A stretch of 45,090 nt of DNA, filler included, from Jimgerdemannia flammicorona (GCA_003990765.1; 2 parts of 2 records of this genome joined end to end with filler, not necessarily neighbours in it), one strand, 5' to 3'. Counted from the whole stretch's first letter, positions 5,493-45,090 are shown. Notes: generated by a model not told the origin, from the sequence alone. Translations and numbers: made by a program.

Positions 5493-5523
<31 letters not shown>

Positions 5524-8310: not shown

Positions 8311-8342
<32 letters not shown>

Positions 8343-8355
8343 CCCCACCCCCCCT

Positions 8356-8392
<37 letters not shown>

Positions 8393-13560: not shown

Positions 13561-15976
13561 AAGAGTGATGTCTGATTCTTGTTCCTCCTTATCATCACTG
13601 TCAGCCTGAAGCTCTGGGGGCTAGTCATCTTCTTCAGCTTTCCTTTTTGCTTCAGCGGCTTCTTGCTCATATTTCTGTTGGCAGATTTTCCTGACTTCAC
13701 TGATATAGGACCAGCAGTTATTCAGGTGTTCAGAGTAGTACATCCTAGTACCATGGTTGAGGGGCATAGCCATTGATGATCTTGTTGTACCACTGCTCAT
13801 CTGTGAGCTTGGGTATCTTGTTCTTGTTCTTGTTCACCAAGTGCATGAAGACCTCTGTGTTCTCTTCATCTCCTTCCTCTATGTCTGGTAGAACTCCTTT
13901 GTGGACATTGATAGAGACTTGTACCTTTCTTCTTCTATAGTTGATCTGCATCTTCTGGGCATTGAGTTCAATGATAGCCTTGGCCTTGTGAAGCTATTGG
14001 TTGCCAATGAGGATGTCATAGTTGGTGGTACTTGTGACAATCACATCTACTGGGATGGTAGCTCCTCCTATCTTGATGGGGACTTTTCAGATTTTGCCAA
14101 GAGGGGTAGCTCATATACCATCTGCTATGACATAGACCATCTTGGTAGACTCTTCAATATTCCAACCTAGGTGGTCAATTGCCTTCTTGCTCATGAGATA
14201 TCCTCCAGCACCAGTATCAATGATGACATTAAAGATATAGTTTTCAATCTGACATAGAGTATAGGTTGATGTCTTGTGCTGGTCTTTGGATTCTTCACCT
14301 GAGTTCTCAGATTCTTCCTGTGCATTGTGAGCTTCTACAATCTTGTACTCTTGATTCTTGACAATAGTTGCAAGTTCTACTCTCAACTACTGTCTAAAGG
14401 CAGGGACTTCAGCTAGTTATCCAAAAGTAGCATTGACCTTCTGTTCCTTAAGGTCCTTATAGATATCATACTGATGGATCTTGGTCTTGTACAGCTTCTG
14501 TTCCTTCTTGCTTTTGCTTTCTCCTGAGACTGGAGTAGTGCTTTCAATAATTTAGTGAGTAGCTTCATCTAACTTCATGTTTTGATCAATCTTCTCAGGT
14601 TGGATCTTGCTTTGAATAGTAATAGCTGGGATCTTATTTGATCTTCCAACTGGCTTGCTGTTGCTCTTCTTGTTATAGGGCTTGGACCAGGTTCTGGTAC
14701 CTTCAGTAGCAGGGTAGAATTCAAGCTCCTCATAGTATTCTTCATCATCAGTGTCACCAATCTCCTCAATGACTACTGCATTAGTTTGTTCTCTGGTTCT
14801 GCTAGTATTGCTTAGTTGGGCTTTGCATCTTGTTTTGGTTATGCAACTCTTTGTATAGTGGCCTTCTTCTCCACATCTGAAGTATGTGATATTGTATTCT
14901 TCTGTAGTAGCTGCAAATCTCTGCACTGGTCTCCTGTTGATGCTTCAGACTTCTCTAACAATATCACCAAGGTGTGCAGTCATCTTGGTGAACTGCTTGG
15001 CAAGTTCTTCCACTGGGTCAGCTTTGGCTGTCTTGGGGGTAGGTGGGGATGGTTGTCTGTTTACAACTGTGGCAGGTATGATACTAGTTGGCTTTGATGG
15101 CTCTATCTTGATGCCAGTTATTTTCTTCATTGAGTGTTCAGCAGGGTGTCTGGCAGTCCAATATCTCTATACAAAGACCACTTTCTGATCAAGGGTCAGT
15201 ATAGCTGGGTTAGACCAGATTGCTAGAGCAATTTCAGGGTGAACTCCTTTGAGGAAGGTTGAATCCGCTATTTGTTCCTTAAGGGCATCATCATAGCCAG
15301 CTAAGACAATCTGGTGGCAGATTCAGATATAGAATGAGTTGGGATCTTCACTGCGTCCCTGGCAGATAGTATTGAGTTGATCCTTGAGAGCTTGCTTGAT
15401 CTCTTCAGTATAATATATTGTTCTGAGGAAGGCCTTCATGTTGGCAAGTTTGGCTGCACCAGTATCAGCAATGGTAGCTACATTGAACTTGTCTCTGGCA
15501 GGTCCTTTGAGGCTGACTGGTAGAAGGGCCAATTGAGCATCCACACCAAGGGCTCATATGACAGTGAATTGTTCAAAGTCTTCAATAAAGGTCAGGATTG
15601 ACTCTTTAGTAGTATGTATATCCATAGAATGTGGGGGGATGTATTTCTATCTTGTCTTGAATTCTTGCAGGGGTGACTCTTATAGTCAGGGTAGTTATTG
15701 TGGAGGTTGTTTATTTTTCAGCTTGAAAGTTAGTAATTCATCTTGAATCACCAGCCAATGGGCACCAAGTTGTCATGTAGTGGTCGCTGAGTTCTTCAAA
15801 TATATCAGACTCCCTTCAAGGTATATCTCTTAGACTAACTCAAGTTTGTTATAAGCAAGTTCTTATTGGAGTGCCTTCCCAAGGTCTTATAGTCCTCAAA
15901 CTTCTTATCTTAAACTGTCTTATTATCTCTTAGATTGCTTGCAAGGAAGTATGTAAGTGAACTAGATAGAACTGAC

Positions 15977-16009
15977 TTTATTTCAGAGGAAATAAGAGGG
16001 GTATTTATA
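15977..16009 (-). promoter_or_regulatory. LTR TATA box (TATAAATA, 16009-16002) and downstream AATAAA (15982-15977)
   Basis: Both motifs are in element orientation ~210-240 bp from the PBS-proximal LTR end, and are identical in the second LTR copy (~19936-19968). Confidence 0.6.
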
Positions 16010-16130
16010 CAAAATATAATTCAATAGTTGCTAAGATATAAAGCTAAATATAAATTCTAATAACTAAAACTACTAAGTTTCAGGATCAGTACTGATGGTT
16101 GTACAGGTTCAGGATGCTGGTATAATTTAG

Positions 16131-16240
16131 TGTAATATCAAAATACCAGTACTGGCATTATTCAGTATTACATCAAAATACCAGTGCTGGCATTATTTAG
16201 TATTACATCAAAATACCAGTGCTGGCATTATTCAGTGTTA
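16131..16240. repeat. Three 35-bp tandem repeats with palindromic core (CCAGTRCTGG) in LTR U3
   Basis: CATCAAAATACCAGTGCTGGCATTATT recurs at 16171 and 16206 (period 35) with a variant at ~16136. A more diverged array is at ~20090-20200. Confidence 0.85.
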
Positions 16241-16248
16241 CAAAGAGC

Positions 16249-17087
16249 TTAGAGCAGAAAGTTCAGGATCATGGGGGCTTCATTCTTGTCATCACTGAAG
16301 GAGATGAGATTTATGAATTCATCATCATCATCATACAGGTCATATATCTCGTGTATGTCATGTGTTTCATGTACTTTGATGTTACACAGGATGATGTCAT
16401 TGCCAATGACATCATTACATTTAGCAGCAATGGGAATAAGAAGATCTGGAGCTCTCCAGTCTATGAGGTTCTCTTCCACAAAATAGGGGACAAATATGGG
16501 GTCTTGGGAGGTCTAACCTGGATGCTTGGGTCTTAGAATACTGAGATCAATCCTTGCAGAAATTGGTCTGGGTTGTCCTGGAGGATGGGATGCCAGAAGT
16601 CTTCTACTTCATCACTATTGAGGGTGATAGTGGACTGGGTCTCTGTAGCCACCCTGGCTTCTGGTACATTGATACAGCAGGATGACAGATCTCTGAAATC
16701 TGAGGCTCTAACATACTCTAAGTTGGGAATTGACTATGGTATATGCCTGAAGATCTGATGGATCTTCTTAGCTGTCCTCATTTCACATATATTCATAAGA
16801 GTGGTATCTTATAGCTCTTGAGTGCTGGCCTGTGAGAACTCTCAGCAGAGGAGATTTCCTATTTCATACTCCTGTCACATTTGGAGGCATTTGGTAGCAA
16901 TAGTGATCCTTGTTTCCATTTTATAGCAGTAGAGGATATAATGATAAGGATTACTAGTACTCAGGTTGACACTAGGAGTCCTTCTTGAGTGGGTCCTCAT
17001 AGCTCTTCTGATGTCTTGGAACATCCTTTCTTTAACTGAGGTGCCTTGATGATTCCTTGACCTTGAGATTTGGCAGATAGTAGACAT
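16249..17087 (-). pseudogene. LTR-encoded ORF of unknown function, copy A (disrupted)
   Basis: Joins track ORFs 16875-17087 and 16249-16479 through transition-type stops and one 1-bp indel near 16507; homologous to 20208-21011. Confidence 0.8.
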
Positions 17088-17439
17088 TTCATTTATAGTA
17101 AGTCTTTGAGCTATTTTGGGATTGGTGGGTCTTGTTGGTTACTGCTACTGCAGTTCTTTGATTCTTTTTTTATATTCTTCAAGATACTTGTGCTGTGATT
17201 ACAATGACTCACAGTTAGTCATCATTGCTCATCTCATATGCTGTATAATCTTCTTGTACTCTGATCTGGTGGCTTGCAAGGAAAGGCTGTCTCCTGTATT
17301 GATGTCATCATTCTGGGGTCACCATTACAGTATATATATTCATATTTGTATTTGTAAATATGCCCAAGAATATTTTTCTCTTACATTCTTCTGTTTATAT
17401 ATATGTATAAGTAAATTACATGATAAGCTTCATTTGTTC

Positions 17440-17741
17440 ACTAGATTTAAATCAGATAATTCAAATTTAGTAATTTAAATCTGATGATTCAAATCTGATA
17501 ATTTGAATTCAGAGATTTGAATTTAGTGATTTGAATTCAGTATTTCAAATTTAGTAATTCAAATCATTAGTTTGGAGATTTGGATCAGAGTAGTTATAAT
17601 TCGAACTAATTTGAATAAATCATATAATGAATTTAAACTGATTCTGATCAGTTTGAATTGATCATGTAATTAATTTGAATTAGTTTGAATCAGAAATAGT
17701 TACAATTTGAACTGATTTGAACTGACTTATTTGGAGTACTA
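17440..17741 (+). mobile_element. DNA-transposon right end (subterminal TTTGAA/TTCAAA repeats plus TIR)
   Basis: Dense TTTGAA/TTCAAA/TTCGAA motifs ending CTGACTTATTTGGAGTACTA, the inverse of 6606-6625. Confidence 0.6.
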
Positions 17742-19729
17742 TTGGGGAGTACTTCTTTATTAATATTGATGAGAATTTACATCTTCTGACCTTGGTAGAT
17801 GATCTGTATCTTCTAGGCATTGAGGTCAATTATTGCTCTGACTTTATGAAGCCACTGGTTGCTGATGAGGATGTCATAGTTGGTAGTATTGGTTATGATC
17901 ACATCTACTGGGATTATTGCTCCTTCAAACTTAATAGAAATATCTAGGATCTTTCTTAGAAGTGTGGCTCTTATATTATCTACTGTAATGAATACCAATT
18001 TAGTTTCTTCTTCAATCTCCCAACCTAGGTAGTCTGCTACTTTCTTACTGAGAAAATATTCTCCTGCTCTAGTATCAATGATGATCTCAAAGATTCTATC
18101 TTCAATTTGATAGATTATATAGGCAGATGTCTTATGATTATCTTTACTCTCTTCTCCAGAACAGAGTCTTCTTGAACATTGTTGGTCTTGGTTATTTTCT
18201 ATCCTTATTCCTTGGTTATCTCAGTAAGTCTATATCTCATTTGCTATCTAAATGTAAGTATTTCTGTCAGCTGGCCAAAGGTTGTATTGACCTTTTGTTA
18301 ACTGAGGTCCTTGAAGATACATATTATATTTGAAAGTTTTGGTCTTGTGAAGCTTCTTCTCCTTTTCTCCTTCACTAGCTGGAGTAGTTCCTCAAATGAT
18401 ATCTTGAACAGTCTGTTCCAGCTCTATATCTTGATCTATTTCTTTACCTTGACTTTCTATAGTAGTTTTCATCTGTTTATCTACAGAGTTCTTCTTAGGT
18501 CTTCCTAGTGGTTTCTTATAGGATTGTTTGTAAACATCCTTCTTGATAGTCTTGGCAGAGTAGGTTTCTCATTCTTCTATATCTGATTCCTCAATCTTCT
18601 CAAAGATAATGATATTGGCCTGTTTCTTATTTTAAGTAGTATTGCTTGACTGGGCCTTGCATTTAGTTTTGCTCATACATTTATATATATAATAGTCTTC
18701 TTTTCCACAGGTGTAGCAGATATCTCTCTTCTTGTCTAAGATGGTAGTAAACTTCTGAACTAAGTAGTGGTCTCTTCCTCTAATTTCTTTTATTATATCT
18801 CCTAGATGGGCTGTCATTTTGGTAGACTTCTTGGCAAGTTCTTCTATTGAGTCACTATTTCTCTACTATTCAGTAGCTCTTGGCTGAGATGTATTTTAAT
18901 TGATTACTATGATAGAGATTATGATAGTTGCCTTAAGTACTTCAATTCTAACTCTAGTAACTCTTTTTATTGTATAATCTTGTAGATATCTGGCTATCTA
19001 ATATCACTGGGCATAGATAACCTTTTGTACTAGATTCAGAACTACAGGTAATAAGTGGATGGCCAGAGCTATCTCTAGGTAGACTCTCTTCATAAAGGTT
19101 ACCTTCACTACTTGATCTCAGATAGTGGCAGCATAATCTATAAAGATTATCTAATATTAGATTCTGGTATAGAATGTGTTTGGATTCTTGCTAATTTCTT
19201 AATAAGTTATATTGAGCTGATCCTTCAGGGCTTACTTGATCTCATCTGTATAGCAGGTAATTTAGAGCCAGGTCTTCTGTACTATCAGTATAGTATTAGT
19301 ATTATTTTCTATATAGATTATAGCTGTGAATGCTACTCTTGTAGAACCTTATAGACTAAAGGATATGAGAGCTACTTACTGTACTACTGTCAGAGTTCTT
19401 ATAGCAGTATACTGCTCAAAATTATTAATGAAGATGATAATTGATTCATCTGAAGTATATCTATAGAATACTGATAGTCTCATATCTATCATGTCTGAAT
19501 GTCTTGATTTAATTTATATAGTTATTCAGATAGTAGTAATTGTTTGTTATTTAGCTTAAAAGTGAGGGATTCATCTTGAATCACTAGCCAATAGATACCA
19601 AGTTATAATATAGCAGACATACATATAACTGTGTAAGTATATCAGATTTCTGTATCTTAAAAACTTGATCTTCTTTAACTTCACAGAGTTCTCAAAATAT
19701 AGAGGTGGGTGAGTTTGAAGTATATCTGC

Positions 19730-21253
19730 TGCCATATAGTGGTCACTGAGTCCTTCAAATATGCCAGATTCTCTTCAAGGTATATCTCTTAGACTAACTC
19801 AAGTTTGTTATAAGCAAGTTCTTATTAGAGTGCCTTCCCAAGGTCTTATAGTCCTCAAACTTCTTATCTTTAACTATCTTGTTATCTCTTAGATTGCTTG
19901 CAAGGAAGTGTGTATATTGCACTGAGAAGACTGACTTTATTTCAGAGGAAATAAGAGGGGTATTTATACAAAATATAATTTAATGGTTACTAAGATATAA
20001 AGCTAAATATAAATTCCAATAACTAAAACTACTAAGTTCCAGAGTCGGCACTGATGGTTGTATAGGTTCATGATGCTGGTATAATTTGGTGTCACATCAG
20101 AATGCTAGTGCTGGAACAATTTTGCATCACCTCAGAATGCCAGTGCTGATATTATCCAGTATTACATCAAAATACTGGTGCTGGCATTATTCAGTATAAC
20201 AAAGAACTTAGAGCAGAAAGTTCAGGACCATGGGGGCTTCATCCTCATCATCAGAGGTCAGAATATCTTTAAAGGAGATGAGATCCATGAATTCATCATT
20301 TTTACATGCTTCAATGTCATGTGGGATGATGTCATTGCCAATAATATCATCACATTCAGTGGGGAAATTGGGGGCTCTCCAATCTATGAGGTTCTCTTCC
20401 ACAAAATAAGGAGCAAATATGGGGTCTTGGGGAGGTCTAACCTGGATGCTTGGGCCTTGGAATACTGAGATCAATCCTTGCAGAAATTGGTCTGAGTTGT
20501 TCTGAAGGATGGGATGCCAGAAGTCTTCTACTTCATCACTGTTGAGGGTGATAGTGGATGGAGCTTCTGTGGCCACCCTGGCTTCTAATACATTGATATG
20601 GCAGGATGACAGATCTCTGAAATCTGAGACTTTAACATACTCTAAGTTGGGAATTGACCATGGTGCATGCCTGAAGATCTGATGGATCTTCTTAGCTGTC
20701 CTTGCCTCACATATGTCCATGGGAGTAGCATCTTATAGCTCTTGAGGGCTGGCCTGTGGGAACTCCTGGCAGAGGAGATTTCCTATTTCATACTTCTGCC
20801 ACATTTGGAGGCATTCAGTAGCAATAGTGATCCTTGTTTCCATTTCATGATAGTAGAGAATAAAGTAATAGGGATCTGTAGTACCCAGGTTGACACTAGG
20901 AGTTCTTTTTGAGTAAGTCCTCATGGCTCTTCTGATGTCTTGGAATATCCTTTCCTCGACTGAGATGCCTTGGTAATTTCTTGACCTTGAGGTTTGGTGG
21001 GCAGTAGACATTTTATTTGTAGTAAGTCTTTGAGCTATTTTGGGATTGGTAGTTCTTATTGGTTGCTGCTACTGCAGTTCCTTCATCCTTCTTTTATATT
21101 CTTCAGAATGCTTGTACTGTGGTCACAATAACTCACAGTTGGTCATCATTGCTTATCTCGTATATTATATAATCTCCTTGTGCTCCAATCTGGTGGCTTG
21201 TGAGGAAAGGCTGTCTCCTGTACTGATGTCATCATTCCGGGATCACCATTATA
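19730..21253 (-). mobile_element. Solo long LTR of the 11535-17329 family, nested in the sister element's LTR
   Basis: End-to-end homologue of 15771-17329 (TGCCATATAGTGGTCACTGAG...CACCATTATA). Flanks CTGC (19726-19729) and CTAC (21254-21257) fit a 4-bp TSD with one G>A. Confidence 0.88.
20208..21011 (-). pseudogene. LTR-encoded ORF of unknown function, copy B (~267 codons, one internal TAA)
   Basis: Track ORFs 20733-21011 and 20208-20720 are in the same frame, separated by one TAA (20735-20733) explicable as CAA/CGA>TAA. Confidence 0.85.
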
Positions 21254-21639
21254 CTACTTATAGGCTTACTAGTTCCTTTACTTTCTCTTTACTTTGAAAT
21301 ATTTTGATCTTAGGTTTATTTACTCTCTATACTGGGAATATTTATATAAGTTTACTAGTTATAAGGTACTAAGTTATGACTATGTTTCCTGTGAGTCATT
21401 CTTTATAAGTATTAATTTCTGATATCTGTTAAGTCTTTAATAATCATCAAAACTTTAACATCTGTAAAATCTTGATATTTGTGAAGAGTTTAACATTTAT
21501 AAAAACTTTAATATTTGTAAAATGGCTGCTATTTGTAAGACTATACTATATTTGGGAATCAGATTTAGATACTACAATCAAATGTCTATTCTTCTAATTT
21601 ATATTCCTGATTTGAATCAACTATCATAATATATATAAA

Positions 21640-22496: not shown

Positions 22497-22596
22497 NNNN
22501 NNNNNNNNNNNNNNNNNNNNNNNNNNNNNNNNNNNNNNNNTTAATTAATTAANNNNNNNNNNNNNNNNNNNNNNNNNNNNNNNNNNNNNNNNNNNN
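22497..22596. other. Artificial scaffold gap: 44 N + TTAATTAATTAA + 44 N
   Basis: Exactly 100 bp, with a palindromic six-frame-stop linker between N runs, flanked by homopolymer contig ends. Confidence 0.95.
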
Positions 22597-22606
22597 AAAA
22601 AAAAAA

Positions 22607-23566
22607 TTCTGGTGGGGGGTGGTAGAGGGGGCACACTACATTGAAATTTGTTGACAAAGAAATGAAGGAGAGGAGGCTTAGGACCTGGTGATATAGAGAT
22701 GGGACCAGGTGTTGCTGGGCAGTATTCCCTTACTAGAGTTTGACCTTAGTAATGGGATAGAATGCCAGAGGGGACTGGGCTAGGATTTGTGGTCCAGTGG
22801 TTGGTAAGGTATAGGGATTGGTGAAGAGTAGGACTAGTATAGCATTTGGGCCTAGAGTACTGAGGTGAGATGATGGATTCTGCTGAAGTACTGAGTGACT
22901 TGGTGGTACATACTGAGGAGGAATATAATGCTCAACTACTGCTTGGGTCACCTTATTGAGGGAGGTTGCTTTGACTATAAGGAGTGCTATAATGTAGGAC
23001 AGGAAGGGGAATATATACAGATGCCTGAACATTAGCTAAGAGAGTGCAAGGTACTTAGTGACTTTTAGTAGACTATTAGGGATCATTTGAGGGTAGGGTG
23101 CAGAAGAGTTAGCATGCAGGGGCGGTGAGAGGATTTGAGGGATAGACTGATGGGGGGGGTGGGAAAGGATGGCTCACACTAGACTGGGCTCTGGCCATTT
23201 AGGTGGGGTTAGCCAGCCACTGGTTATTTGTTTTTGAGAATGGGAGGAGGCTAGGCTTAGGGGTCTGGCTGCTGCAGTGGCATAGTCTTATGGAAGACAC
23301 CCTGATAGACTGGTGGCTTGGTTGGGGGTTGCAGAGTGGTTGGAGGCATTGATTGGTAGAAAAAATCTGTAGGCAGAGTGGGGGAAGGGTTGAAGTAGTA
23401 GGTGAGAAGGTAGTCTTTGTTTAGGAGAGGATGGGGAGAGGCTCCCCCATGGGGATCGGGTAGTAGGAGAAAGTACTGTGTAATTATTAATAGATTGATA
23501 ATAAATGGCAGAGTCCAAGTGACTATAAAAAAATAAAAATAAAAAAATAAAAAAAAAAAAAAAAAA
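22607..23566 (+). mobile_element. 3' end of an L1/Tx1-type LINE with poly(A) tail
   Basis: WDQVLLGSIPLLEFDLS is homologous to WDRLLLGGIPLTELDIS at ~35570; a zinc-finger-like segment GCFDYKEC...PEH*LREC...DF* follows; A-rich tail at 23525-23566. Confidence 0.75.
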
Positions 23567-24230
23567 GATCTCAGTAAAGAAGATCTCAGTGAAAATAGCA
23601 AAAGAGATCTCTGTAAAGGAGATCTCAGTGAAGATATATATATATATATATATATATTTCTATCTTTATAGTAGAAGAGATAGAGAGCAAAGAGGATAGT
23701 TGTAATCTATAAGTAATAGAGAGAAGGACAAAATGGTGAGTGATTGAGTAAAATACAATATAGTGGGTAATTGAGCAAAATATAATATAATGGACAATTG
23801 AGCAAAGTGTAATATAATGAGTAATTGAGCAAAGTGGAATATAGTGGGATATTCATAACTTCTTATATATTATCTTTATATACTTTTAGAGATTGTAAAG
23901 ATGATAAAGCAGATCTTGGTAAAGATAATAAATTAGTAAAGATTGTAAATCAATAAAGATAGTAAATTAGTAATCTTAGCAAATATAATCTTAGTAAAGA
24001 GGGTCTTAGTGAAGATAGTGAAGAGAATTCCAGTGAAGAGAATCTCAGTAAAAGAGATCTCAGTGAAGGGGATCTTAGCAAAGGAAATCTCAGTAAAGAG
24101 GTAGATTTTTTTTTTTTTCTATCTTTACAGTAGGAGAGATAGAGAGTGAAGAGGATAGTTATAATCTATAGATAATAGAGAGAAGTATAAAATAGTGAGT
24201 GAGCAAAGTACAATATAGTAGGCAAGTTAT
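23567..24230. repeat. Compound degenerate repeats (15-bp GATCTCAGTRAAG units, 27-bp ATTGAGCAAAGT units, duplicated ~110-bp block)
   Basis: Block ~23656-23770 recurs at ~24116-24225, differing nearly only by transitions; short units visible directly. Confidence 0.75.
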
Positions 24231-24976
24231 TTATTTTATTTTAAATTTCAATATATATATAAACTAACTTACTATTAACTATTACTGACAAATATTATAT
24301 AATTACTTAGAATATTGTCTGTTATAAATACTAGTATATATAAGAATCAAGATGATACTCACTCAAGAGGTAATATTATTAGATATATATTATTAAGTTA
24401 TACAATTAGAAATTATAGAGATTTAATATTATTATTCTGTTAGAATCTTTCTTTCATTTAGAATCAATGCTTATAAAGTCTTTTCTGGGCAGCATAGAAC
24501 TAGAGATATTACTACTCTATTTTAGCTTTTCTTAGATCTTTTAGCTTTTCTTCAATAATTTGAATATAGTTGAGATAAATATCAAATCTAGACTCTATAA
24601 ATATATGTTCAATATTTATCAGTAAGAAAATCTTAATTGATATTATAGTAGAAGAGATACTGGTATAGGAGTATATACTTATGAAAAAACTGATAATGAT
24701 ATTTAGAATATTTATGTTCAGATTGTAGCTTTTTGTTTTTTTAGATATTTCTCAAATTTATGAATCTTTTCAAGAATAAGATTTTGAATAAAATTTGAAA
24801 AACCAACTAAGTAAGGATAAGTTTCAGCTTCAGTGATTGATTTGGTCTAAAAATCTAGCTAAATTTATTGATTATATTCAAAATAGTTTTAATCTACTTT
24901 ATGAATAATCTTAGTTATACTAATAAGACTAAAGTTTGCATGACTTTTTTTCTTCAATATAGTATAATAAGATTCT

Positions 24977-25380
24977 TGTAATATTTTAGTATAGTTTATT
25001 TTTTTTCTTTGTCTTTCCTCAATATTCTACAACCTTCTAGTACTTTCTGAACACTTAGAAATCCTTTCTTGATACTGAGCATCTACTAGTACTTATTTAG
25101 CTAGTCACTGAATATCCTGGAAACTTGTAGAACTTTATTTGTCATCATTTGTCATCCTTACTAAGAACTTTCCTCTTGGCATTTTCCTTTGATTTCTCAG
25201 ATCCTTCTGGATCCTTCTTTCAGATCTTGTATAAATATCTCCTTTGTTCTCATGAATAAAGTCTCAGAATATTTTCTCTCAGAAATCCTTCAAGAATACT
25301 TAAATCCTTAAGTATCTCTTCAAGCTACTTAGAACTACCAGAACTAGTCGCTTCCTCATTTAGAAACTAGAACTATTACA
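24977..25380 (+). repeat. 5' LTR
   Basis: TGTAAT...ATTACA; ungapped match to 30645-31048. Confidence 0.97.
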
Positions 25381-26529
25381 CTTAGTAGTAGTAGTTAAGT
25401 TATACCTAGCCTTATCAAGACACCTCTCAAGATATGTACCAGTTACAACACTATGGAGGACAATACCTCTCAAGATATGTATCAGTCACAACACTATGGA
25501 GGACAACAAGTGGAATTCTTTATACAGTACCTATAGCCCAGGCAATATCTCATACAATCAGCAAGAAGAAGAGGAATAGCAAAACCCTACTCAGTCAACC
25601 AAGGCCATCAAGAGTCTTTTGCAGACTGCATTAGCTCAGATTGCTCAACTTCAAGAACATATAAAAAGAAAGAAAAGCAAGGCCTCTGCTCATACATACC
25701 TCTGCACCCCCACCGATATCAATACATCCAACAGCAGTCACTATCGAGCCTCAGAAGCCTGACACTTTTGATGGTCAAAAAGGAGGACTGTCTACCGATG
25801 CCTGACTTTTCCAATTAGAGCAATATGGAGAACTGACTAATTTGGAAGAAGCAACACTAGTCTAATTTACCACCATACTCCTCCAAGAGAATACTGCAAT
25901 CTGGTGGTGAAACCATGTCTAGAATACCAGATTTGCTGGCCAGATTAGGACCTGAAATGAATTCTCTAATGCTGTTTAAGGCCAATTCAAACTAGTCAAC
26001 AGCACTAAGGCTACATGAGACCATCTGGCAAATGTCAAACAACTCAAGTCTGTACAAGCATATAATGCATAATTTCTATCAATTCTATTAGAATTACTAC
26101 ATGTCACTGAAGACAAGAAGGTTGATATGTACATTTGAGGCCTGAAAGGTCAAACCTGAGTTTGTATCAAGCTAGAAGAACCCAAGGACCTAGATATAGT
26201 AATGAAGATTGCTGATAGATTTGATATCATCATCTATGGTCACCGCTTTGAACAGAAGAGACCACCTTTCAACAACAACTACAAAAGGGAGGAACCCAAA
26301 GTCAGAACTATTAGACCTGCTCCCATGGACCTAGACACCATTGATAAGAGCAAGAAAGGCAAGCTTATATCTGAGAAAAAGGAGTATCTAAAGAAGGCTA
26401 GAGTCTGCTTCTTTTGCTATTAGCCTGGTCATATTATAACTAAATATCTCAAGAAAACCACTGAACCAAAAAGGATTCTGGTCCTATCCAAAGACACTCA
26501 AGGTCAACCAGTTGAAAAAGAAGTTGTAC

Positions 26530-26937
26530 TCAATTTTATGTGAGTTAACCCCAAGGTTCAGATCCCTCAAGTATAGTCAAAAAGAGCCATTGGTTTAGAC
26601 CTTCAAGCAGTATAACAAGTCACTATTCCAGCACATGAAAGAAGGCTTATTCCAACTGGCCTTTCAGTCAAAATCCCCAAGGAACATTATGCAAGAATTG
26701 CACCAAGATCTGGCCTCAGTTTCAAGCACTCATTAGATATTGGTGCTGGAGTTATTGACTCTGACTTCTGAGGTGAAATGCAAGTTCTGCTAGTCAACCA
26801 TAAGAATCAACCATATCATCAATGAAGGTGACAGAATTGTGCAGCTCATTCTGGAGCAAGCCACCCTACCAGTTATTAAAGAAGTCACCAAGCTGTCTCC
26901 AACCAAGCAAGATCAGAAAGGCTTTGGCAGTACTGAT
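26530..26937 (+). pseudogene. dUTPase domain between Gag zinc knuckle and protease
   Basis: [38 protein letters not shown]. In frame with gag upstream; one frameshift at ~26820, then in frame with the protease. Confidence 0.95.
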
Positions 26938-29900
26938 AAAGTTACAAGCATAGTCGAGAACTGAGCCAATTCAATACTCATTTTCAAAGGTCTAGTCAAG
27001 GAATAAGAGCTAGATGTTCTCATAGACAGTGGAACTGTTGGGAACTTCATCAATAAGAACCTCATTGATAAGCTTAAGATTCTTACCAAACTAGCTGGCA
27101 AGAATTGTAGAGTTATCACTGTAGATGGTACCATCTTACCAATCAACTCAATTGCCGCTAAACTCTCTCTCAAGATCCAGAAGTACTGGGAACATTTAGA
27201 TTTCGAGATAGCACTACTAGGAGACCATGACCTGATCCTAGGCAAACCCTAACTTATATGATACAACTCTCAGATTGATTGGACCAAGAATGAAGTTACC
27301 TTGATTTAGGATAGAGCTAACATTACTATCAAGTCAGACAAGACTCAGACAAGAACCCCAATTGCTACCCTTTCAGCAATTCAGTTCAAGAAGGCCCTCA
27401 AGAAAGCTATCTGTGCCTTTGTAGCACTGATCCGACTAAAGAAAGAAGACAAGAAGCTATCAATTAGTGAAAGTGTCAAGTTACTACTGAACAAGTAAAA
27501 GGATGTCTTCCCAAACAAACTACCTGGTCTACTACCTTCAAGAGACCATAACCATGAAATTAAGCTGGTACCTGATGTAGCTATACCTAAGAAGAAAGTG
27601 TACAATATGTCTCCACTCAAAATTGAAGCAGTCAAGAAAGAACTCAATGAACTCATTGAGTAAGGAGCCATCTAACCAAGCAAGTCACCCTTTGGCTCCC
27701 CAGTCCTATTCATTAAGAAAAAGGATGATACTCTGCAAATATGCATAGACTACCAAGCACTCAACAAGATTACAGTCAAGAACCATTATCTGCTACCACT
27801 CATAGATCAAATCTTTGATGCTCTTAAAAATGCAAAGTACTTCACCAAGATTGATCTCACCTCTGGATATCACTAAATTTGAATCAAGCCAGAAGACATA
27901 CCCAAGACTGCCTTCATGATATCCTTTGGACTCTATGAATTTCTAGTCATGGTCTTTGGTCTCACCAATGTGCTAGCAATCTTTCAAAATCTCATATAAA
28001 CTGTCTTCAAGGATCAGCTCTATATCTTTGTACTTGTATATATTGATGACATCCTGATCTTCAGTAGCACTGAAGAAGAACACCTCAAGCACATTGAACA
28101 AGTCCTCAAGATCCTCTGTGAGAACAAGCTCTATGTAAAGCTCAAGAAATGTGAATTCTTCAAAGATCAAGTTGAATACCTTAGACACATTGTATCAGCC
28201 AAAGGAATTCAAGTAGACCCAAGGAAAATACAAGCCATTGAACAGTAGTCTGTACCAGCAAACCTCACTGAACTCAGGTCCTTCCTTGGTCTGGCTGGAT
28301 ACTACTATCGATTTGTTAAGAACTTCTCTGATATTGCAGAATCTTTGACAAATCTCCTGTAAAAGGAACCCAACTCTGACCTCTGTATCCCCTACATCTG
28401 GGATACTTTCTGTCAACAAGCTTTTCAAGAACTCAAGAACCACCTGACCCATGCACCTGTCCTTAGAAATATGGACCCAAACTTGAAGTTCATAGTTACT
28501 ACAGATACATCTAACTTTGCCATTGATGCAGTCATTTCTCAAGATAATGATCAAGGATACTGACCTATTGCCTTTGAGTCAAGAAAATTGTCCCCCATAG
28601 AACAAAAGCTAGCTACTCATGAAAAGGAACTCTTGGCAATCATGTATACCCTCAAGACTTAGTGATACTACTTAGAAGGAGTTGAGTTTGACATGATCAC
28701 CAATCACAGGTCTCTTCAGTATATCAACACTCAACCAACCCTTTCTTGCCAACAAGCCAAGTAGAGTTAACTACTTCAGACCTTTACCCCAAACATCATC
28801 TACAAGCCTGGCAAAACTCTAGTTGTATCAGATGTACTTTCAAGAAGACCTGACCTTGCTGCAATTTTACAAGTCACCATGGCATCAGAATTCCTCAATC
28901 AGATCAAGAAGGCATATAAACAAGACTCTCTGGTTCTATAAAGAAATACTAAGGAATTCAAGAAAAAGTATACCATCAAGGACAATCTCATATACTATCA
29001 AAACAAAGTATATATTCCTACCAACCCTGAACTATGGTATAGATTCTTCATAAACATCATGACTCCCCACTAGCTGGTTATCTTGGAACTGAGAAGACTA
29101 TCAAGAATATCCAATGAGACTACTACTGGCCAAATATGCTCAAGGAAATCAAGGATTATATCCAAAGCTATGACCTTTGTCAAAGAAATAAGTCAAGTAA
29201 TCAAGTATCTGCTGGTCTTCTACAACTCTTGCCAATTCCAACCAAGAAGTTTGAACAAGTCATAATGGACTTCATTGTGCAACTCCCATGAACCAAAATA
29301 GGCTATGATGCTATTGTTGTGTTTGTGGACCATCTCACCAAGATTACAATTGCTGAGCCAACTACAACCAATATCACTACCCCAGAAATTGCAAGAATCT
29401 TCTTCAAGACTATCTTTCACCATTATGGACTTCTCTAAGTAATTATCAGTGACTGTAACCCCAAGTTTACAAGCTACTTCAAGCAAGCACTCTTCAAGAC
29501 CCTTGAAACCCAAATTGCTATATCTACTGCCTTCTATCCTCAAACTGATGGACAGACTGAGCAAATGAATAGAACACTTGAACAAATGCTCAGAAACTAT
29601 GTGTCTTATGAGTAAGATGATTGGGACCACTATCTGACCTATGCTGAGTTCACCTATAATAATGTCACCCAATTATCAACTAGTCTTTCTCCATTTCAGC
29701 TACTTTATGGTCAAAACCCTGAGACCTCTGCAAGCCTAGTCCCATTCCAGCAATCCAGTCACACACAAGTCCCCACAGCCCAGAACCTTATTGACAAAAT
29801 GGATTCCCTTCTCAAGATTGCCACTATGAATCTGCAGAAGGCTCAGCAATATCAAGCTAAGTATACAGATAAGAAGTAGCAAGATGTCATATATAATATT

Positions 29901-30644
29901 GGTGATATGGTTCTACTCCAAGCTGACAATATCAAGGCTCAATCTCAAGTCAACTGTCAGTTAGCCAAATTCCAGCCCAAGTACCTTGGACTCTTCGAAA
30001 TAACCAAGCAAGTCTCTACCTAGTCTTACTGCCTCAACTTATCAACAACCATACATATACACCCAGTATTTCATATGTCACAACTCAAGGCCTGGAACCA
30101 GTCACCTCTATATCCTGGCCAAATTCCAACACCATCAGCACCAGTGATAGTTGAAGACCACATCGAGTATAAATTCAAGAAAATCTTAAACAAACAAGTC
30201 TAATACTGTCACACAGAATACCTAGTCAAGTAGATGGGTTATCCTGAATATGATGCCACCTGGGAATCTGCTGCCAATCTCAAGAACTCTCAAGACCTCA
30301 ACTAAGAGTTCAAGCAAAAAGGAACTCATTGACAGCCTGTGAGGTTCTCCTCTTAGATAGTAGATGACATACTATACTGATCAGGCACATTAAGTATTGG
30401 GGCACTCTAAAGGATATAGTATCAGAAATAAGAGATATAGGAGAACTCTATAAATCCTGCAACCAATGAGGTTTGAACCAGTTCTTATCCAATTAAGATG
30501 ATACTTTGGCCCTTGCCTTATATAAGGATGGTCAATCCTTACCAATGAGCTAACATATTTTATTTGAAGTTTCTTTTAGTCTTATTGTTTATTATATATA
30601 ACTTTGAGAATTCAATAAGGATGTTGATTCTTAAGGAGGGGAGA

Positions 30645-31048
30645 TATAACATTTTAGTATAGTTTATTTCTTTTCTTTATCTTTCCTCAATATTCTACAA
30701 CCTTCCAGTACTTTTTGAACACTTAGAAATCCTTTCTTAGTGCTGAGCATCTACTAGTACTTATTTAGCTAGTCACTGAATGTCCTAGAAACTTGTAGAA
30801 CTTTATTTATCATCATTTGTCATCCTTGCCAAGAACTTTCCTCTTGGCATTTTCCTTTGATTTCTCAGATCCTTCTAGATCCTTCTTTTAGATCTTGTAT
30901 AAATATCCCCTTTGTTCTCATAAATAAAGTCTCAGAATATTTTCTCCCAGAAATCCTTTGAGAATACTTGAATCCTTAAGTATCTCTTTGAGCTACTTAG
31001 AACCACCAGAACTAGTCACTTCCTCATTTAGAAACTAGAACTATTACA
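30645..31048 (+). repeat. 3' LTR
   Basis: TATAAC (mutated TGTAAC)...ATTACA directly after the PPT and followed by TSD ATTCT. Confidence 0.97.
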
Positions 31049-32779
31049 ATTCTACTAAACTGATAGTAGTTATTTAGAGAAGAATTAGAGAATGTTATTA
31101 ACTCTATATTACTCATTTAAGATATTTGAAAGCCAATAATGATAAATATAATCTTTATTCATAGGAAGCCTAGTAATAGCTTATTGAATTATCATTTTAT
31201 AACTAGGACAGAGAGCCTATATATAGCTTGAAGTATTAATATATAGTTTTTTTTTTTAAAAGCTACTAAGTCTTCTTTATAAAGTCTATTAAATATATCA
31301 GATATAATAAAGAATATTAACAACTTATTTATCTACTGCAAGTTTACAAAATATATTATTGATAGCACTCTCTTCAATTGCTGATTGATCAATTAAAAAA
31401 TAGTAAGATTGTTAGATTTTAGCTTAATGTTTAATTGCTTGAAGTCTTGAAGTAATAATATATTATTCTTCACTACTGATAAAGAAGTAACTATTAGGAA
31501 GCCAAGAGCTAAAGGAGTTTTATTCTATAATTGTATAGAGTTTTTAGTCATATTTGTTTATTTTATAGATAGAATCTATACATAATAGTAAAATAGCTAC
31601 TGTATTTTTGAAAGATACTCAAATTGTTAGTAGTAGTAAATATAAAGCTTTGATATTTGCTCTTACTAAATAATTCTGTTTAGTAATCTTAATATTGAAG
31701 CTATATAATTATATCATCAATGTTAATCTCTAAGTTTTCAGTACTAATAAAAGATATATATATTCAATTCTTTATAGAAGTTATATTGATTGTTGAGAAT
31801 TATCTTAGACTAAAGATATTAAATACTAACTTATTTATTCTTAAAGATATCAATTACAGTATCTTTGACTACTGATATACAATATCTCTTCTTAACTTCT
31901 ATCTTTACAAAATCAATAACTATACTTAGTAGTTTTCTAATATTACTTACTTTAAGATCATAAGTATAATCAGGAGTATTATTACTATATATCTTGTAAA
32001 TAGTAATAATATTGTCTTTGAGTATAATAGTAATCATAGTCTCATAAAGATTTAATTACTATATATTAGTATTTTGTTATTTCTCAACTTATAGACTAGA
32101 ATTTTTTATAAATAAGTTATAGTGCTTTTTGAAATAACAATTATAAGTCTTAGTCTACCTACTGCTTTTTTTCAATAATTTTATCTATCTAACTTATACT
32201 CAGATATTGTCAACTTATAGTTAGTTTGTTTTAAAAACTTCTTTAAATATGTATAGTGAATAGCTTATCTATATTGAAATATCTAAGATAATTACTATTA
32301 TAGTTAAGAGTTTGCTCTATTATCATTATCAGTTTTATTGATTGATAAGTAGACATATTTATTATAAATATATTTCAAAATTTGATACAGTATCCTATAT
32401 TTAAGAAAATTAGTTTATTTTGATCATTTTTTTTATATCTATATTAACTTAGTTAGCCTAGATTCAGTCAAATATATATCAGTCTCAGTATATGAGCAAG
32501 TATCTCTTTATATAATATTCAAATTATTTATTATAAAGTAAATTAATAATATAATGATAAATATAGTATAAAATAGAGTTAATGAGTTTGACTATATAGA
32601 AGACACTTTTAAGACTCACTATTTATATTCATATGTGGAAGTTATTTATTATATCTTAAGACTAAAATAAATAGATAAGAGAGATATACAAACTATAGAT
32701 ATAAAATTATTAACTACTAATAGTATATAACTAAATACTAAGTAAAAATGAAATGATAAATTTATAAAGAAGATCTATA

Positions 32780-35710: not shown

Positions 35711-36449
35711 GCTTTTTTATATTCATTTATAACTATATCATCTACCATATATATATATTTTATATATATATTATGTACAGTCTATCTGATTTTGTAAATT
35801 TCTTCCATAGAGCATATTAAAGAATACATATAGGAATACCCCTATATATGATACATACTTATAATATTCTACTCTTCAGAGGTTTTTCTTTTTTTTCTAG
35901 GCTCTTAAGATATTTCTGGTAATTCTCGCTTCTTAGAATTTAATTCCTACTGACTTCATTCAGAAATATCTTCTTGGTAAATGATATTTATGTTTCTATT
36001 AGAATCATTAGAATTGACATATAATTGTTGATAAATTTCATAAATAATTCTTTCTTTATCCAAATATTCTTGAATAGCTTTGGTATCAAATAATTTAAAA
36101 ATATAAGGAGCAATTTTCTCACCTTATTGTCTTTTCAAAATACTTCAGATGGTGCTGTAATTTTTCAGTTCCATAGTGAACTTGATATAAATTAATTTCA
36201 TATTGATATTTTTATATAGGGATAGTCTTATGTATTCAAAGGTCACTATAGTAGTTCATATTTCGCAGATATGCGAATACATCAAAAAGAATCCATAGAA
36301 TGTGGTAACGGGATCATCGGCGGCGGCGTGGTGCAGCCACTAATGATTTCTTGCAAAAAGGAATCCTCGTCATCAGCTTTTTCGTCTACGACTTCTTTGC
36401 ATTCCATAATTATCATCTGAATTCGGCATTGATAAATGTGTAAATATCA

Positions 36450-36852
36450 CGTGTAAGTCCTTTACTCATCTCGACTGGGAGAACCAGGCCCTACCCACCA
36501 TGTTGTGCTTTGATGAGGGTTTTTCTTTGCCTGTCATTCTCTTTGGGGTGGCAGGGGCTATTCTATTCGGCTCGGGTGTGGCCTTGTACATACGTTGGGT
36601 TCTCAGGCATGCGCTTTTGGTCATTGGCGTATGGTTGGGTTTCCCCTGGTGGTAGGGAGAGCATGGTGCGCAGAATGAGGTGCAGGCCAACATAGGCCCT
36701 GCTGTGCCTGGCATGGTTGAGCTGCTGGACAATAGCTAGCCTAGGTTAATGGGGGGGCAGTGCTTGGTGGGTGGTGGGAGAGGGTTTTGGCCTATATAGT
36801 CTAAGTTCCCTTCCAATAAAATTCCGCGGAACATGAGTCCATTAAAAAAAAA

Positions 36853-36883
<31 letters not shown>
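36450..36883 (+). mobile_element. 434-bp poly(A)-tailed retroposed insert in the last intron, 16-bp TSD
   Basis: AAATGTGTAAATATCA at 36434-36449 and 36884-36899; AATAAA then ~40-nt A tail; T/AAA target typical of L1-type endonuclease. Confidence 0.92.
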
Positions 36884-36888
<5 letters not shown>

Positions 36889-38949
36889 TGTAAATATCAT
36901 TTCTCCATCACAAATACTCGTACATCATAGCAACATATACCTTTGCTCTGCATACGCATGAGTAAATTTCTGATTTGCGAGACGATTGTTGGCACTTCGT
37001 TTGGTTCTTCTTGCACCAAAACAGAAACATAGCCCTTTGGGCTATTCAGTCGCAACAGTTGCATCACAAGACCTGCATCATCATTAAAGCGTTAAGTTTC
37101 GTACTCATATAATTTATATGTTCAGTTCTACCTACCCGAGTGAAGCAAGCCCACAACCTGTAGCTTTTTCACTTTCACTTCTTCATTCTTGACATATCGA
37201 CCCAACGAAACGAGCATATCGTGCATGACTTTGGCTAATTTGTGGTAATCATTGAGTCGCTTCGTTCCAGCCGTGCCATCGAACATCTTGCCAACCTCGA
37301 TTGCCCCGAACTCAAGATTGTTGACCGGCGAACGAAAAATGACATCTATCCGGCGGCCCATCTTCTTACGTTCAGACCGCGACCTTGCGCGATTCTTCCG
37401 CGCCGAGGTGGAAACACTTGCGGATTCCTTTCTGCGGTTAACAGAAACATAAAATGTGAAATACAAAAGAGAAGAGAGAGAATAAATAGCGAAAGAACCT
37501 CTTACCTAACCAATTCTATATCGTGCAGATTTCCAAATGCACGATCTATGATGGATGCCCAAACATTCGCGTCAAACCACCCTTCCAGGTGGGCCTTTTG
37601 CAGTCTTTGGGCCGGATCTCCCACATCCATTAAACTGCAAATGAATGTCTATGTAAATGTATATGTCATTATAAGGTTTACGTGCGCAGGGAGATAAGAT
37701 ACTTACAAGTTTCGCACTACGTTTTCTGCCCATTCAGCGTCAAAATGTTTTTCGCGGTCATAGGCTTCGTCCTCAGGTCGAAACGACGTTGTTTCCATTA
37801 TATGCCTCAATTCGTCAGCGGTCCTGGCCTGAAGTGACAATAAAACATAAGCGTTATGATTGCAAAGAATACAAAAGCAGCATCACCACCTCAACTTACT
37901 TGGGCAAAGCGTATCAACGATTGCGCGTAGCCTCGGCTCACTTCAGGGACTTTCCGGATAGTGGCTCGAATTTCCCCCTGTTCTGCGGAGGTAAATAAGT
38001 TTGTTGTTTCTGCATCATTCAAATCGATGATCCATGAATGCATCAACGATTCGGTTGACAGCTTCTGGCCATGATTGAAGATAATGTCTTCAACGTATGA
38101 GCCAGAAGATAGAAGCCACTTGCCCGACTGGTGCATTTTTTCAAATGATTCTCGAAAATTCTTAAGCTGCAATGTTGGCAGCCCTTTCCGTTCAGTGTCA
38201 CTCAAGCTGGTAAAAAAAAAAAAAAAAATTAGGATGAAAGATTGAAACACACCATATCAAACACGGGCATACCTTTGGTTGTACTCCGATCCAGATTCAG
38301 TATCTGATTCCGAAATGCTTGTCTAAAAATAATAGCAGCACGTTGTTAGCGTTGGAAATAATTTGTGGCAGAAATACAATCATACCTTGTCCAACTTACC
38401 TGCAATTCAACTGGCATTCTTTTTAGTTGGGTCTTGTAAGGCCCACGAGCCGATCGTTTTTTCGCTGACTCACACGGTGATTCGTCGCTGTCGCTTTCGT
38501 CGTTCTCATCACCATGGAGCGTGCCATGAGGCCTTTTTTGTCCCAAACTGATGTCATGGTCCTTGTGGACGTTGCCCTGCGAAGGAGAATGTAAATTAGT
38601 CACATCTTGTTTTTGAGTCTTGGCAATATGCACCCGCTCCGATTTTACCTCTGATTTCCTTAATAATTCAGTACCACCGTTAATTGTTCCGATTTCATGA
38701 AAGGAGCTGCCATGAAATCTTGGTCGGTATAAGCGTACAGAACTAGTGGTGTTTTTGCGATTATTTTCCCATTCTCTTGCCAACTGACGGTCGGCCCGAT
38801 TTCCCTAGGTATGGAATATAAAGAAATCAGTAAAATATTCTACTAATATCATTTCTTGTTTGATTTGCCATCCCACTAAGTTACCAGCGTTGGGCCCCCC
38901 GCCCGAAGGCTCTTTTAAACACAGGCAAACTCGAAGGTCGCCTGCCCCA

Positions 38950-39100
38950 ACGCAAACAAACTTAGAGATTGCTGGGCCTAGTGGGCTAGTGGAAGGTCGA
39001 CTTAGAGACTTGAACGCCAAACAAACTTAGAGATTGCTCGCGCCCTACCACTAGTTTCGTGGCTCGACTTAGAGACTTGAATGGCGGGAAACTTAGAGAT
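38950..39100. repeat. Intronic repeat array with CTTAGAGA cores
   Basis: CTTAGAGA at 38961, 39001, 39026, 39068 and 39092. Confidence 0.8.
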
Positions 39101-41046
39101 CCCACGCCACGCCACCATTTCAAAACAAAACAGGGGAAAAAAAGGTAGACTCGCCTATTTATATTGGTCGAACAGCTGTTTTGCCTGTTTCTGCCTTTGA
39201 CCTTTTTCAGTTTCAGAGATAATCTCGAGGGACGTAAGGTAAAGCGCTACCTTGACTTGAAATGGTTCCTCATCACATTCATCCAAAAAGCCAAGAATAC
39301 TCCACTTCGAAGGCCTGCGTCCGAAATATTGGTGTACTTTGCGTCCGGACATAACTGAGAGAAACATAAAAGTCGTCAGTGTTCGCGTGAGAGAAACTTT
39401 GACGCGTCCGAATAGTGCAATTTGCACCGGAAGATCACGTGTTTCTGTGACATATCCCTATCAATATCAAATCACATCCTTGGTTTGCTTTTAACATTTT
39501 ATTTGGTGGATATTAAAAATTAAAAGGTTACAGGCAAAAATAAAACTTTCGAACCTAATGATGCTCACTTTGTCTGGTTTTGTTGCAGCACGCCCCATAT
39601 AATATATATTTTTATCTATAATAATATTTTTACTTATTATAGACTTTTGTATTATAATTTATACTTTATAAATATTAAGACATATATCAAACTCACACTT
39701 ATATAATTTTGATAAATATAAATAGAGCTATTATATAAAGCTACTATATTATACTTAGTAGAATTAACAAATTCTATATATATCTGAAATTGTATACAAG
39801 CTACTCTCTATTTCTCACCTCTTGCAAAACTTCATGTCCCAGCCAAAGTGTAAAGATTGACTAGCTGAGTTTGACTGAACCAACTCGTGCTTTTGATTAC
39901 AAATGTTCGCGAGCCTTATAGAAGGAATGTGTTGAGGTAGGGGTTGTGTTTGGTATACCTCGTTTCACAATTTGCGGAGAGTTGACTTCACATTTCATAA
40001 TCGAGCTTTGTGCAATTGAAGCGGAACTTGATGACACTAATGGACATGAGCTGCTGTGGGGGGGGGGGGCGGGGGCTACCTGGTAACTCTGCCATACATC
40101 CACCAAAAAGAACCTTGCGTTGTCTAGTCGGGACAAGGAAGGGAGAGGAGAAGGATTACGGTACCGATGATGTTGCAGCAGCCCCACCCGCGATCTATAA
40201 ATAAATGAATAATATTCAAGGAAATGTAATACGAAGCTGGCTTGACGGGCTTGAGGGGAGCAGATTTGGTGGTAGATGGTAGGTAGTATTGCGACAACGT
40301 GCATGAAAGTAGATTAATAGCAGCTTCACATGGTATTGGGGGGGCTGATGACGAGTTATAAATAAAATTGATACAAATAAAGAAATGTAGTCAATTTAGT
40401 GCAATTGGGTAGAAGACAGATGGCAAGACGACGACGAGAAGGACTAGGTTGGGAGCAGGCCTGTGTGTCGAAAGGGCTCGGACGGTCGAAAATTGGGGAC
40501 CACCTCGCAACGGGTAGGAACGGGTAAGGATGGGCAGCAAGTCGGCCGCACAAGGGCGGATGAAATAGCGCCGGGGCCTGATACTCTGGGCGTATGATGA
40601 CGCCACGGGTTCGCCGATTCGGAGGAGAGTCATGCGGTCGGACAATGGGACCCGCTATCCCCCGTCCAAATTTTCTTGGCGCCCCCTTTCCCTCGTTCAT
40701 TGCTCTCTCCGTGACAAGCCGCACCCCCCGGAAACCTCGTCCCGCACCGGCCTTTTCTCAACCCGTAAGTATCGGCCACAGAACCATACGCCCTCGCACA
40801 CAGACCATCCCTCCCTCCCAACGCCCTTCCCTCCCGTCTCAATATTTTCCTGCCCTTTGCGCAAAAGACCCATTTCATTTTTTGTCCCGGACAACCAACC
40901 CCCCCCACCCCCTGCCGGACAATTAACCTATTCGCAATGTCGCTTCATGACAGACACCAAGGTCTTGATCACAACTCGCCCAAACTTGGTCCACCATTTA
41001 CTGCCACCGCTCACAACAAAAAAAAATAGTCACCACACTGTTGTCA

Positions 41047-45027: not shown

Positions 45028-45090
45028 GTAGGATTAGACAAGGAAGACCAATGATTAGTTTTTATGATGCATATACTGATTTTTTTTTTT

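Follow-up and report, generated by a model that had tools for sequence, protein, structure and literature searches.

In Neurospora and the Pezizomycotina more widely, repeat-induced point mutation (RIP) introduces C-to-T and G-to-A changes that are restricted to repeats, fall on both strands of both copies and inactivate their targets through nonsense codons, the context order in Neurospora being CpA >> CpT > CpG > CpC. In Basidiomycota, CpG hypermutation or decay of 5-methylcytosine (5mC) at CpG, associated with DNMT1 and DNMT5, leaves CpG nearly absent from repeats and at expectation in genes. To our knowledge, mutagenesis by RIP or in a RIP-like manner is regarded as a trait of Dikarya, and essentially of ascomycetes. 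The passages of one paper on Zymoseptoria tritici report that Dim2 methylates transposons with a preference for CG, then CA and CC, CT being almost absent, and that the enzyme makes C-to-T mutation of transposons more frequent in mitosis (Moeller et al. 2021, PMC8016269). Within Mucoromycota, parts of two papers describe for Phycomyces blakesleeanus (Mucorales) both DNMT1 and a DIM-2 homologue, together with 5mC that is restricted to repeats and lies in CG and CHH contexts (PMC11258239, PMC13297926). Here we analyze one strand of 45,090 nucleotides, filler included, from Jimgerdemannia flammicorona (GCA_003990765.1), the whole of which we call the window, and in particular a dead, dUTPase-bearing Ty3/gypsy element with long terminal repeats (LTRs) that occupies positions 24977-31048. 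After its insertion the element gained C-to-T (G-to-A) transitions and hardly anything else, in both LTRs and on both strands, and we consider it probable that these record a C-to-T decay of transposons that is linked to methylation by a DIM-2-like enzyme, rather than RIP of the RID type.

The element is delimited by a direct repeat of 404 bp per copy, with an offset of 5668, that flanks 24977-31048 and forms its LTR pair. Its features are listed below, the protein domains being Pfam matches on stop-to-stop open reading frames (ORFs) and the internal region being supported by Pfam, translation and polarized changes:

24972-24976, + strand: left target-site duplication ATTCT, the same as 31049-31053
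24977-25380, + strand: 5' LTR, 404 bp, TG..CA ends, with 14 of the 26 inferred C-to-T/G-to-A changes
25381-30644, + strand: internal region of the Ty3/gypsy element
26616-26961, + strand: dUTPase
27007-27249, + strand: protease (RVP_2)
27676-28245, + strand: reverse transcriptase (RT; RVT_1)
28363-28560, + strand: RNase H (RT_RNaseH_2)
29118-29288, + strand: integrase zinc domain (Integrase_H2C2)
30024-30200, + strand: SH3_Tf2 (SH3_Tf2-1)
30634-30644, + strand: polypurine tract AGGAGGGGAGA, immediately before the 3' LTR
30645-31048, + strand: 3' LTR, 404 bp, now beginning with TA, with 12 of the 26 inferred changes
31049-31053, + strand: right target-site duplication ATTCT, the same as 24972-24976

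The matching 5-bp duplications, the TG..CA ends and the polypurine tract identify a single insertion, whose LTRs were therefore identical on arrival; the position of the tract before the 3' LTR sets the orientation as +, and the domain order protease-RT-RNase H-integrase, with the dUTPase ahead of the protease, assigns the element to Ty3/gypsy. A single frame remains in register over 833 codons (26794-29292), with no frameshift and 21 in-frame stops (11 TAA, 5 TAG, and 5 TGA), indicating that the element was killed by point mutation and not by indels.

The two LTRs align without gaps and differ in 26 of 404 columns, and base-by-base alignment bears out the count of 26 sites, all of them transitions, given in a preliminary description of this DNA: we find 26 transitions, no transversion, and no indel. 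Read on the + strand these are 11 C>T and 15 G>A changes, so that both strands are affected. With C/G taken as ancestral, the contexts are 16 CpA/TpG, 5 CpG, 3 CpC, and 2 CpT, reproducing exactly a tally that had been presented as CpA dominance; the term holds for the raw counts (16/26), but per site CpG changed about twice as often. The inferred LTR ancestor contains 142 C/G sites, comprising 41 CpA-type, 6 CpG-type, 25 CpC-type, and 70 CpT-type cytosines, which yields rates per copy-site of 5/12 (0.42) for CpG, 16/82 (0.195) for CpA, 3/50 (0.06) for CpC, and 2/140 (0.014) for CpT. The excess is not limited to CpG: 21 of the 26 changes lie outside it, CpA changed 14-fold more often than CpT, and the probability of at least 16 of 26 changes falling at CpA is 5e-4 given 41/142 sites, or 2e-5 when CpG is excluded. 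At the former CpGs 25291/2 and 25321/2 one LTR carries CA and the other TG, as would be expected if the two strands of an ancestral CG had been deaminated independently.

Four further parts of the window enter the comparisons:

1990-4620, + strand: older, heavily decayed copy of the same family, from RNase H to part of the 3' LTR (GC 20%, CpG observed/expected 0.04)
15707-17338, no strand assigned: first copy of a second repeat pair, of a family unrelated to the element; replicate sample
19540-21262, no strand assigned: partner copy of the second repeat pair; replicate sample
36450-45090, no strand assigned: spliced, expressed host genes, used as unique-DNA control (CpG observed/expected 0.91-0.99)

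Two copies alone cannot polarize a change, and we therefore sought intact relatives of the element by a database search with an RT fragment. The protein of an intact sister copy (P0006, 445 aa) aligns without gaps to 26974-28305 of the window at 85% identity. Of the 66 amino-acid differences, 58 are explained by one unambiguous base change, and 51 of these 58 run from C/G to T/A (28 C>T and 23 G>A, next to 3 A>G, 1 T>C, and 3 transversions); the remaining eight are either multi-step (3) or ambiguous (5). A second intact fragment (P0108) covers 164 codons that include 21 differences between the window and P0006, of which 18 are private to the window copy and 2 to P0006, all three sequences differing at the last. 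In the LTRs, the old relic keeps C or G at the informative sites 25240 and 25254, and an RNA contig of another copy has G at both 25072 and 25074 (among the 40/712 differences listed). It follows from these comparisons that the process is directional, from C/G to T/A, in the window copy.

The same order of contexts is found in two further samples. At protein-altering sites of the coding region, the rates are 9/17 (0.53) for CpG, 26/136 (0.19) for CpA, 11/89 (0.12) for CpC, and 5/120 (0.04) for CpT, so that 42 of the 51 polarized changes fall outside CpG; CpA differs from CpT (P = 2e-4) and not significantly from CpC (P = 0.20). The second repeat pair, with 186 transitions and 27 transversions in 1577 aligned columns at 86.5% identity, has rates per copy of 0.44, 0.15, 0.14, and 0.05 for CpG, CpA, CpC, and CpT, respectively. 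The normalized order common to the three samples is thus CpG (0.42-0.53) > CpA (0.15-0.20) >= CpC (0.06-0.14) > CpT (0.01-0.05). At 66% identity, with 271 transitions and 199 transversions, the less similar half of the second pair is too diverged to interpret, and a third repeat pair of 81 columns is too small. Transitions also predominate between the window and RNA contigs of paralogous copies (at least 80% likeness), with transition:transversion sums over the listed kinds of change of 414:88 for RNA contigs X1 and 291:25 for RNA contigs X2. A scan of metagenome contigs for DNA of sister copies returned 63 loci, the best at 59% amino-acid identity and none close enough to use.

Repeats alone are affected. 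Each 1-kb bin within 1001-5000 and 7001-36000 has a CpG observed/expected of 0-0.12, against 0.85-1.23 in the gene bins (1-1000, 5001-7000, and 37001-45000), as had been described in outline from the sequence (repeats nearly CpG-free, genes CpG-rich); the boundary bin 36001-37000 has 0.69, and at about 36.4 kb the ratio jumps from 0.03-0.11 to about 1 within one bin. RNA contigs X1 and X2 match the neighboring genes across GT..AG splices, each listed piece (about 120-980 nt) differing at 0-2 positions; they come from the same strain as the window or a nearly identical one. The genes at 36.4-45 kb are thus genuine genes of the host and are expressed. Their introns, defined by the RNA splice joints with coordinates approximate by 1-2 nt, have a GC content of 39.5% and a CpG observed/expected of 1.07 (11 introns pooled, 1059 bp), and the unique spacer at 38950-40050 has 37.6% and 0.95.

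Decay within the repeats has gone to different depths. Young transposon copies have 39-41% GC, no CpG, and a CpA/TpG observed/expected of 1.24-1.30, and this excess of CpA/TpG without CpG is the signature of CpG decay. Relics have 20-23% GC vs. 38-40% in unique non-coding DNA, and the relic at 1990-4620 has a CpA/TpG observed/expected of 0.52; its loss of CpA/TpG and its GC content of 20% show that decay goes past CpG to CpA and below the GC level of unique non-coding DNA. Compared with the younger element, this relic has T/A for C/G at 462 of 2312 filtered columns and C/G for T/A at 90 (at 500 and 111 of 2536 columns without filtering). The two indices commonly applied to RIP, with thresholds of at least 0.89 for TpA/ApT and at most 1.03 for (CpA+TpG)/(ApC+GpT), vary among the repeats: they are 0.89 and 1.38 in the element interior, 1.18 and 0.97-1.03 in the LTRs, and 1.31 and 0.53 in the relic. 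Young copies as a group have a (CpA+TpG)/(ApC+GpT) of 1.38-1.48, a non-RIP value.

Set beside the Basidiomycota, the locus shares the near-loss of CpG from repeats with CpG at expectation in genes, and the CpA/TpG excess of its young copies, but differs in that most changes are non-CpG (21/26 in the LTRs, 42/51 in the coding sample) and in that its relics lose CpA/TpG and fall to 20% GC. The preliminary description had argued that passive decay of 5mCpG would not give CpA dominance; the argument stands for CpG-only methylation and lapses for DIM-2-type methylation, whose targets include CA and CC. The mutation-rate order of all three samples fits the DIM-2-type order CG > CA > CC >> CT, as an order of mutation rates and not of methylation. 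A mechanism of this kind would have three steps. First, one or more DIM-2-like methyltransferases (DNMT1 superfamily, with a BAH domain) would methylate the cytosines of transposons and not those of genes, preferring CG > CA > CC >> CT; second, the methylated cytosine would become thymine, either by spontaneous deamination of 5mC or by enzyme-promoted deamination; third, CpG would be lost first and CpA/TpG next, nonsense codons would be gained, and GC would fall from about 39% to about 20%. We infer that methylation is the intermediate and that targeting works through heterochromatin rather than homology. Processive deamination would be expected to cluster the changes into strand runs, but no significant clustering was seen (P = 0.14, 0.62, and 0.65), and this result together with the methylation-like proportionality of the rates leads us to lean towards independent events.

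Candidate enzymes are on record for the host: a supplement to Navarro-Mendoza et al. (2023, PMC9963178) lists for J. flammicorona AD002 three DIM2-class proteins with BAH and C5-methyltransferase domains (JGI 471264, 479070, and 483080), and passages of the paper itself place DIM-2-like homologues in Endogonales and Glomeromycota. A listed DIM-2-class enzyme is one likeness to Z. tritici; the others, as far as the passages on that fungus go, are that its system is likewise transposon-confined, with more than 95% of mutations C-to-T, and that its 5mC preference (CG > CA > CC, with almost no CT) is the order of per-site mutation rates here (PMC8016269). Z. tritici differs in being an ascomycete that also has RID, and in that more than 98% of its C-to-T changes are reported at CA, CG being spared, whereas CpG is the most mutable context here (PMC8016269). 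Phycomyces, also in Mucoromycota and of another order, is reported to have its repeat 5mC strongest on LTR elements; the passages in question describe methylation, while J. flammicorona is known here by its mutational footprint (PMC11258239, PMC13297926).

Several points weigh against methylation-linked decay. The CpG-first order is unlike the Dim2-dependent mutator of Z. tritici, in which CA is hit and CG spared, and because the two differ in spectrum the analogy is limited to the methylation preference of Dim2. According to passages of a 2026 review, 5mC is generally near-undetectable in early-diverging fungi (PMC13297926). The unique control amounts to about 2.2 kb of introns and spacer, in which selection or biased gene conversion could keep GC high, and all of the evidence comes from one 45-kb window. 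The context counts of the LTRs and of the second pair assume that C/G is ancestral, and the coding sample is blind to synonymous changes and takes its contexts from neighboring bases that may have changed too.

The strongest competitor, which we nevertheless regard as rather unlikely, is an active C-to-T mutator in Endogonales, triggered by homology or heterochromatin and dependent on a DIM-2-like enzyme, that would act in RIP-like bursts; its models are the RID-independent DIM-2 pathway of Neurospora and the 'mitotic RIP' of Zymoseptoria. What chiefly speaks for it is the dominance of C-to-T over everything else (26:0 in the LTRs, 51 vs. 7 other changes in the coding sample), joined by the 21 nonsense codons without a frameshift in 833 codons, the nearly equal load of the two LTRs (14 and 12), and the RIP-type indices reached by old relics (1.31 and 0.53). 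It could also draw on the DIM-2-like genes listed for J. flammicorona (PMC9963178, in its supplement) and on the role of DIM-2 in mediating RIP in Neurospora, as reported in part of a preprint (bioRxiv 10.1101/115501). Such a mutator is, however, poorly matched by a most mutable context of CpG and not CpA, by young copies with non-RIP indices, and by the lack of strand-coordinated clusters, none of which were seen in the tests for strand runs. Nor does a repeat-rich genome scored 'no_rip' (231 Mb, with 77.5 Mb of LTR elements and 62.3 Mb of long interspersed nuclear elements, in the tabulated part of PMC12543289) suit an efficient defense. Abundant LTR transcripts among the RNA contigs are a further point against it.

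The suggestion, made from the sequence before this analysis, of a repeat-directed defense outside the lineages where one is established survives in part: the change is directional, C-to-T, confined to repeats, and largely non-CpG (21/26), but we find no evidence of a trigger by duplication or homology, the indices of young copies are non-RIP, and CpG comes first. Its boldest form is a doubtful possibility that we put forward tentatively: Endogonales might possess an active, DIM-2-like-dependent mutator of repeated or heterochromatic DNA that serves as a RID-independent defense, draws on an ancestral capacity of the DNMT1/DIM-2/RID superfamily predating Dikarya, and escapes k-mer screens. Such screens would miss it because CpG is hit first and because most non-coding DNA is already decayed repeat.

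We think it improbable that the pattern reflects an untargeted G:C-to-A:T transition bias with neighbor effects, with genes, introns, and nearby spacers kept rich in GC and CpG by selection or GC-biased gene conversion. Non-genic DNA of the window does run at 20-33% GC over long stretches without recognizable transposon proteins, and the unique control of about 2.2 kb adjoins genes. The differences between strains that the RNA contigs X1 and X2 show in unique DNA (0-2 in each listed piece of about 120-980 nt) were too few to yield a background spectrum. Untargeted bias is nonetheless hard to reconcile with the sharp boundary in CpG observed/expected at about 36.4 kb and with introns and spacer at 0.95-1.07, since selection is unlikely to hold every CpG; the 20% GC of the relic vs. 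38-40% in unique non-coding DNA and the absence of transversions among the 26 LTR changes also speak against it.

Classical RIP of the Pezizomycotina type, that is, premeiotic, RID-dependent, and duplication-triggered change of CpA to TpA, is very improbable. The locus resembles RIP in its repeat-restricted C-to-T/G-to-A changes on both copies and strands, consisting of transitions only, in its inactivation by nonsense codons (16 of 21 being TAA or TAG), in its CpA-rich raw counts (16/26), and in the high TpA/ApT that its old relics combine with a low (CpA+TpG)/(ApC+GpT). It departs from RIP in that CpG comes first after normalization and CpC stands at or above CpT, in that the element interior has a (CpA+TpG)/(ApC+GpT) of 1.38 and young copies lie outside the RIP range of the indices, and in its host, a member of Mucoromycota. 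Pre-integration editing of the retrotransposon cDNA by an AID/APOBEC-like deaminase would account for a retroelement that is hypermutated from C to T and from G to A and prefers certain dinucleotides. Such editing is strand-specific, however, and we rejected it as the least credible alternative: the two strands carry similar numbers of changes (28 C>T and 23 G>A in the coding sample, 11 and 15 in the LTRs), the private changes in each LTR of a single insertion point to mutation after integration, and the same pattern occurs in relic DNA that does not code for transposon proteins and in a second family. As for RID itself, which classical RIP requires, it is reported as exclusive to Pezizomycotina (as RID-1) in passages of PMC9963178 and as restricted to Ascomycota in passages of PMC13297926, and the J. 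flammicorona genome is reported to consist of more than 70% repeats (part of PMC12543289).

Methylation-linked decay of transposons by C-to-T change is known; what is new here is its apparent occurrence in Mucoromycota with a strong non-CpG component, as seen in one 45-kb window. Literature searches, with subscription papers and bioRxiv supplements outside their scope, turned up no account, for Endogonales or Mucoromycota, of hypermutation that is RIP-like or runs from C to T outside CpG. A kingdom-wide k-mer screen describes, in the passages available, RIP-like signatures as unique to ascomycetes (Badet and Croll 2025, PMC12543289); in its supplement the row for the species reads 'Jimflamm 23 0 0 23 ... 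no_rip', and TATA is enriched 4.0-fold in J. flammicorona non-coding DNA. Given the 'no_rip' score, the footprint in the window is thus that of a process unregistered by that screen. If the pattern holds genome-wide, it would offer a natural system in which to ask whether DIM-2-type enzymes alone drive mutational decay of transposons, it would help to explain the AT-rich, CpG-free blocks of the very large Endogonales genomes, and it would mean that the dating of insertions by LTR divergence in these genomes is inflated by targeted C-to-T change.

A flanking gene gives the taxonomy. An ORF at 40969-41796 has 100% identity over 82% of its length to the NCBI hypothetical protein BC936DRAFT_145973 of J. 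flammicorona (Endogonales), so that the earlier guess of a Mucoromycota host was correct and the host is not an ascomycete. Two genes had been named in the preliminary description. For the first, a TBC gene, we obtained no Pfam TBC match with single ORFs, either among 299 ORFs of at least 50 aa (E <= 1e-3) or among 40 selected ORFs (E <= 1). For the second, a METTL21 gene, the support consists of weak Methyltransf_16 matches on two adjacent ORFs at 5195-5787 (- strand); this METTL21-like (lysine methyltransferase) candidate is GC-rich and stands directly beside the relic of 20% GC. Of the words sampled from the gene region (37000-45000), 7-8% occur in the root metatranscriptomes X3 and X4, which is no evidence of habitat.

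Other observations concern the repeats themselves. RNA contigs X1 and X2 pile up on the LTRs of the element (24900-25566 and 30903-31569) and leave its interior almost bare, with a summed word depth on the LTRs of about 1400-2000 for X1 and about 115-2000 for X2, which suggests abundant LTR-derived or read-through transcripts from the element's family. A second Ty3/gypsy family in the window also carries a dUTPase upstream of its protease (12886-13620, - strand; open frame of 245 aa, E = 8e-26); dUTPase-bearing gypsy elements are said, on the strength of a basidiomycete report, to be uncommon in fungi. The region 11400-21300 holds a minus-strand gypsy element followed by a partial direct duplication of about 3.4 kb, whose copies (13938-17338 and 17796-21262) share 69-85% identity; the arrangement seems to be tandem or nested. 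Two runs of 44 N each (22497-22540 and 22553-22596) are assembly gaps inside the AT-rich repeat block. Long poly(A)-rich tracts at 8277-8420, 23516-23590, and 36831-36906 may be the tails of non-LTR retroelements, and the last of them lies at the border between the CpG-free block and the genes.

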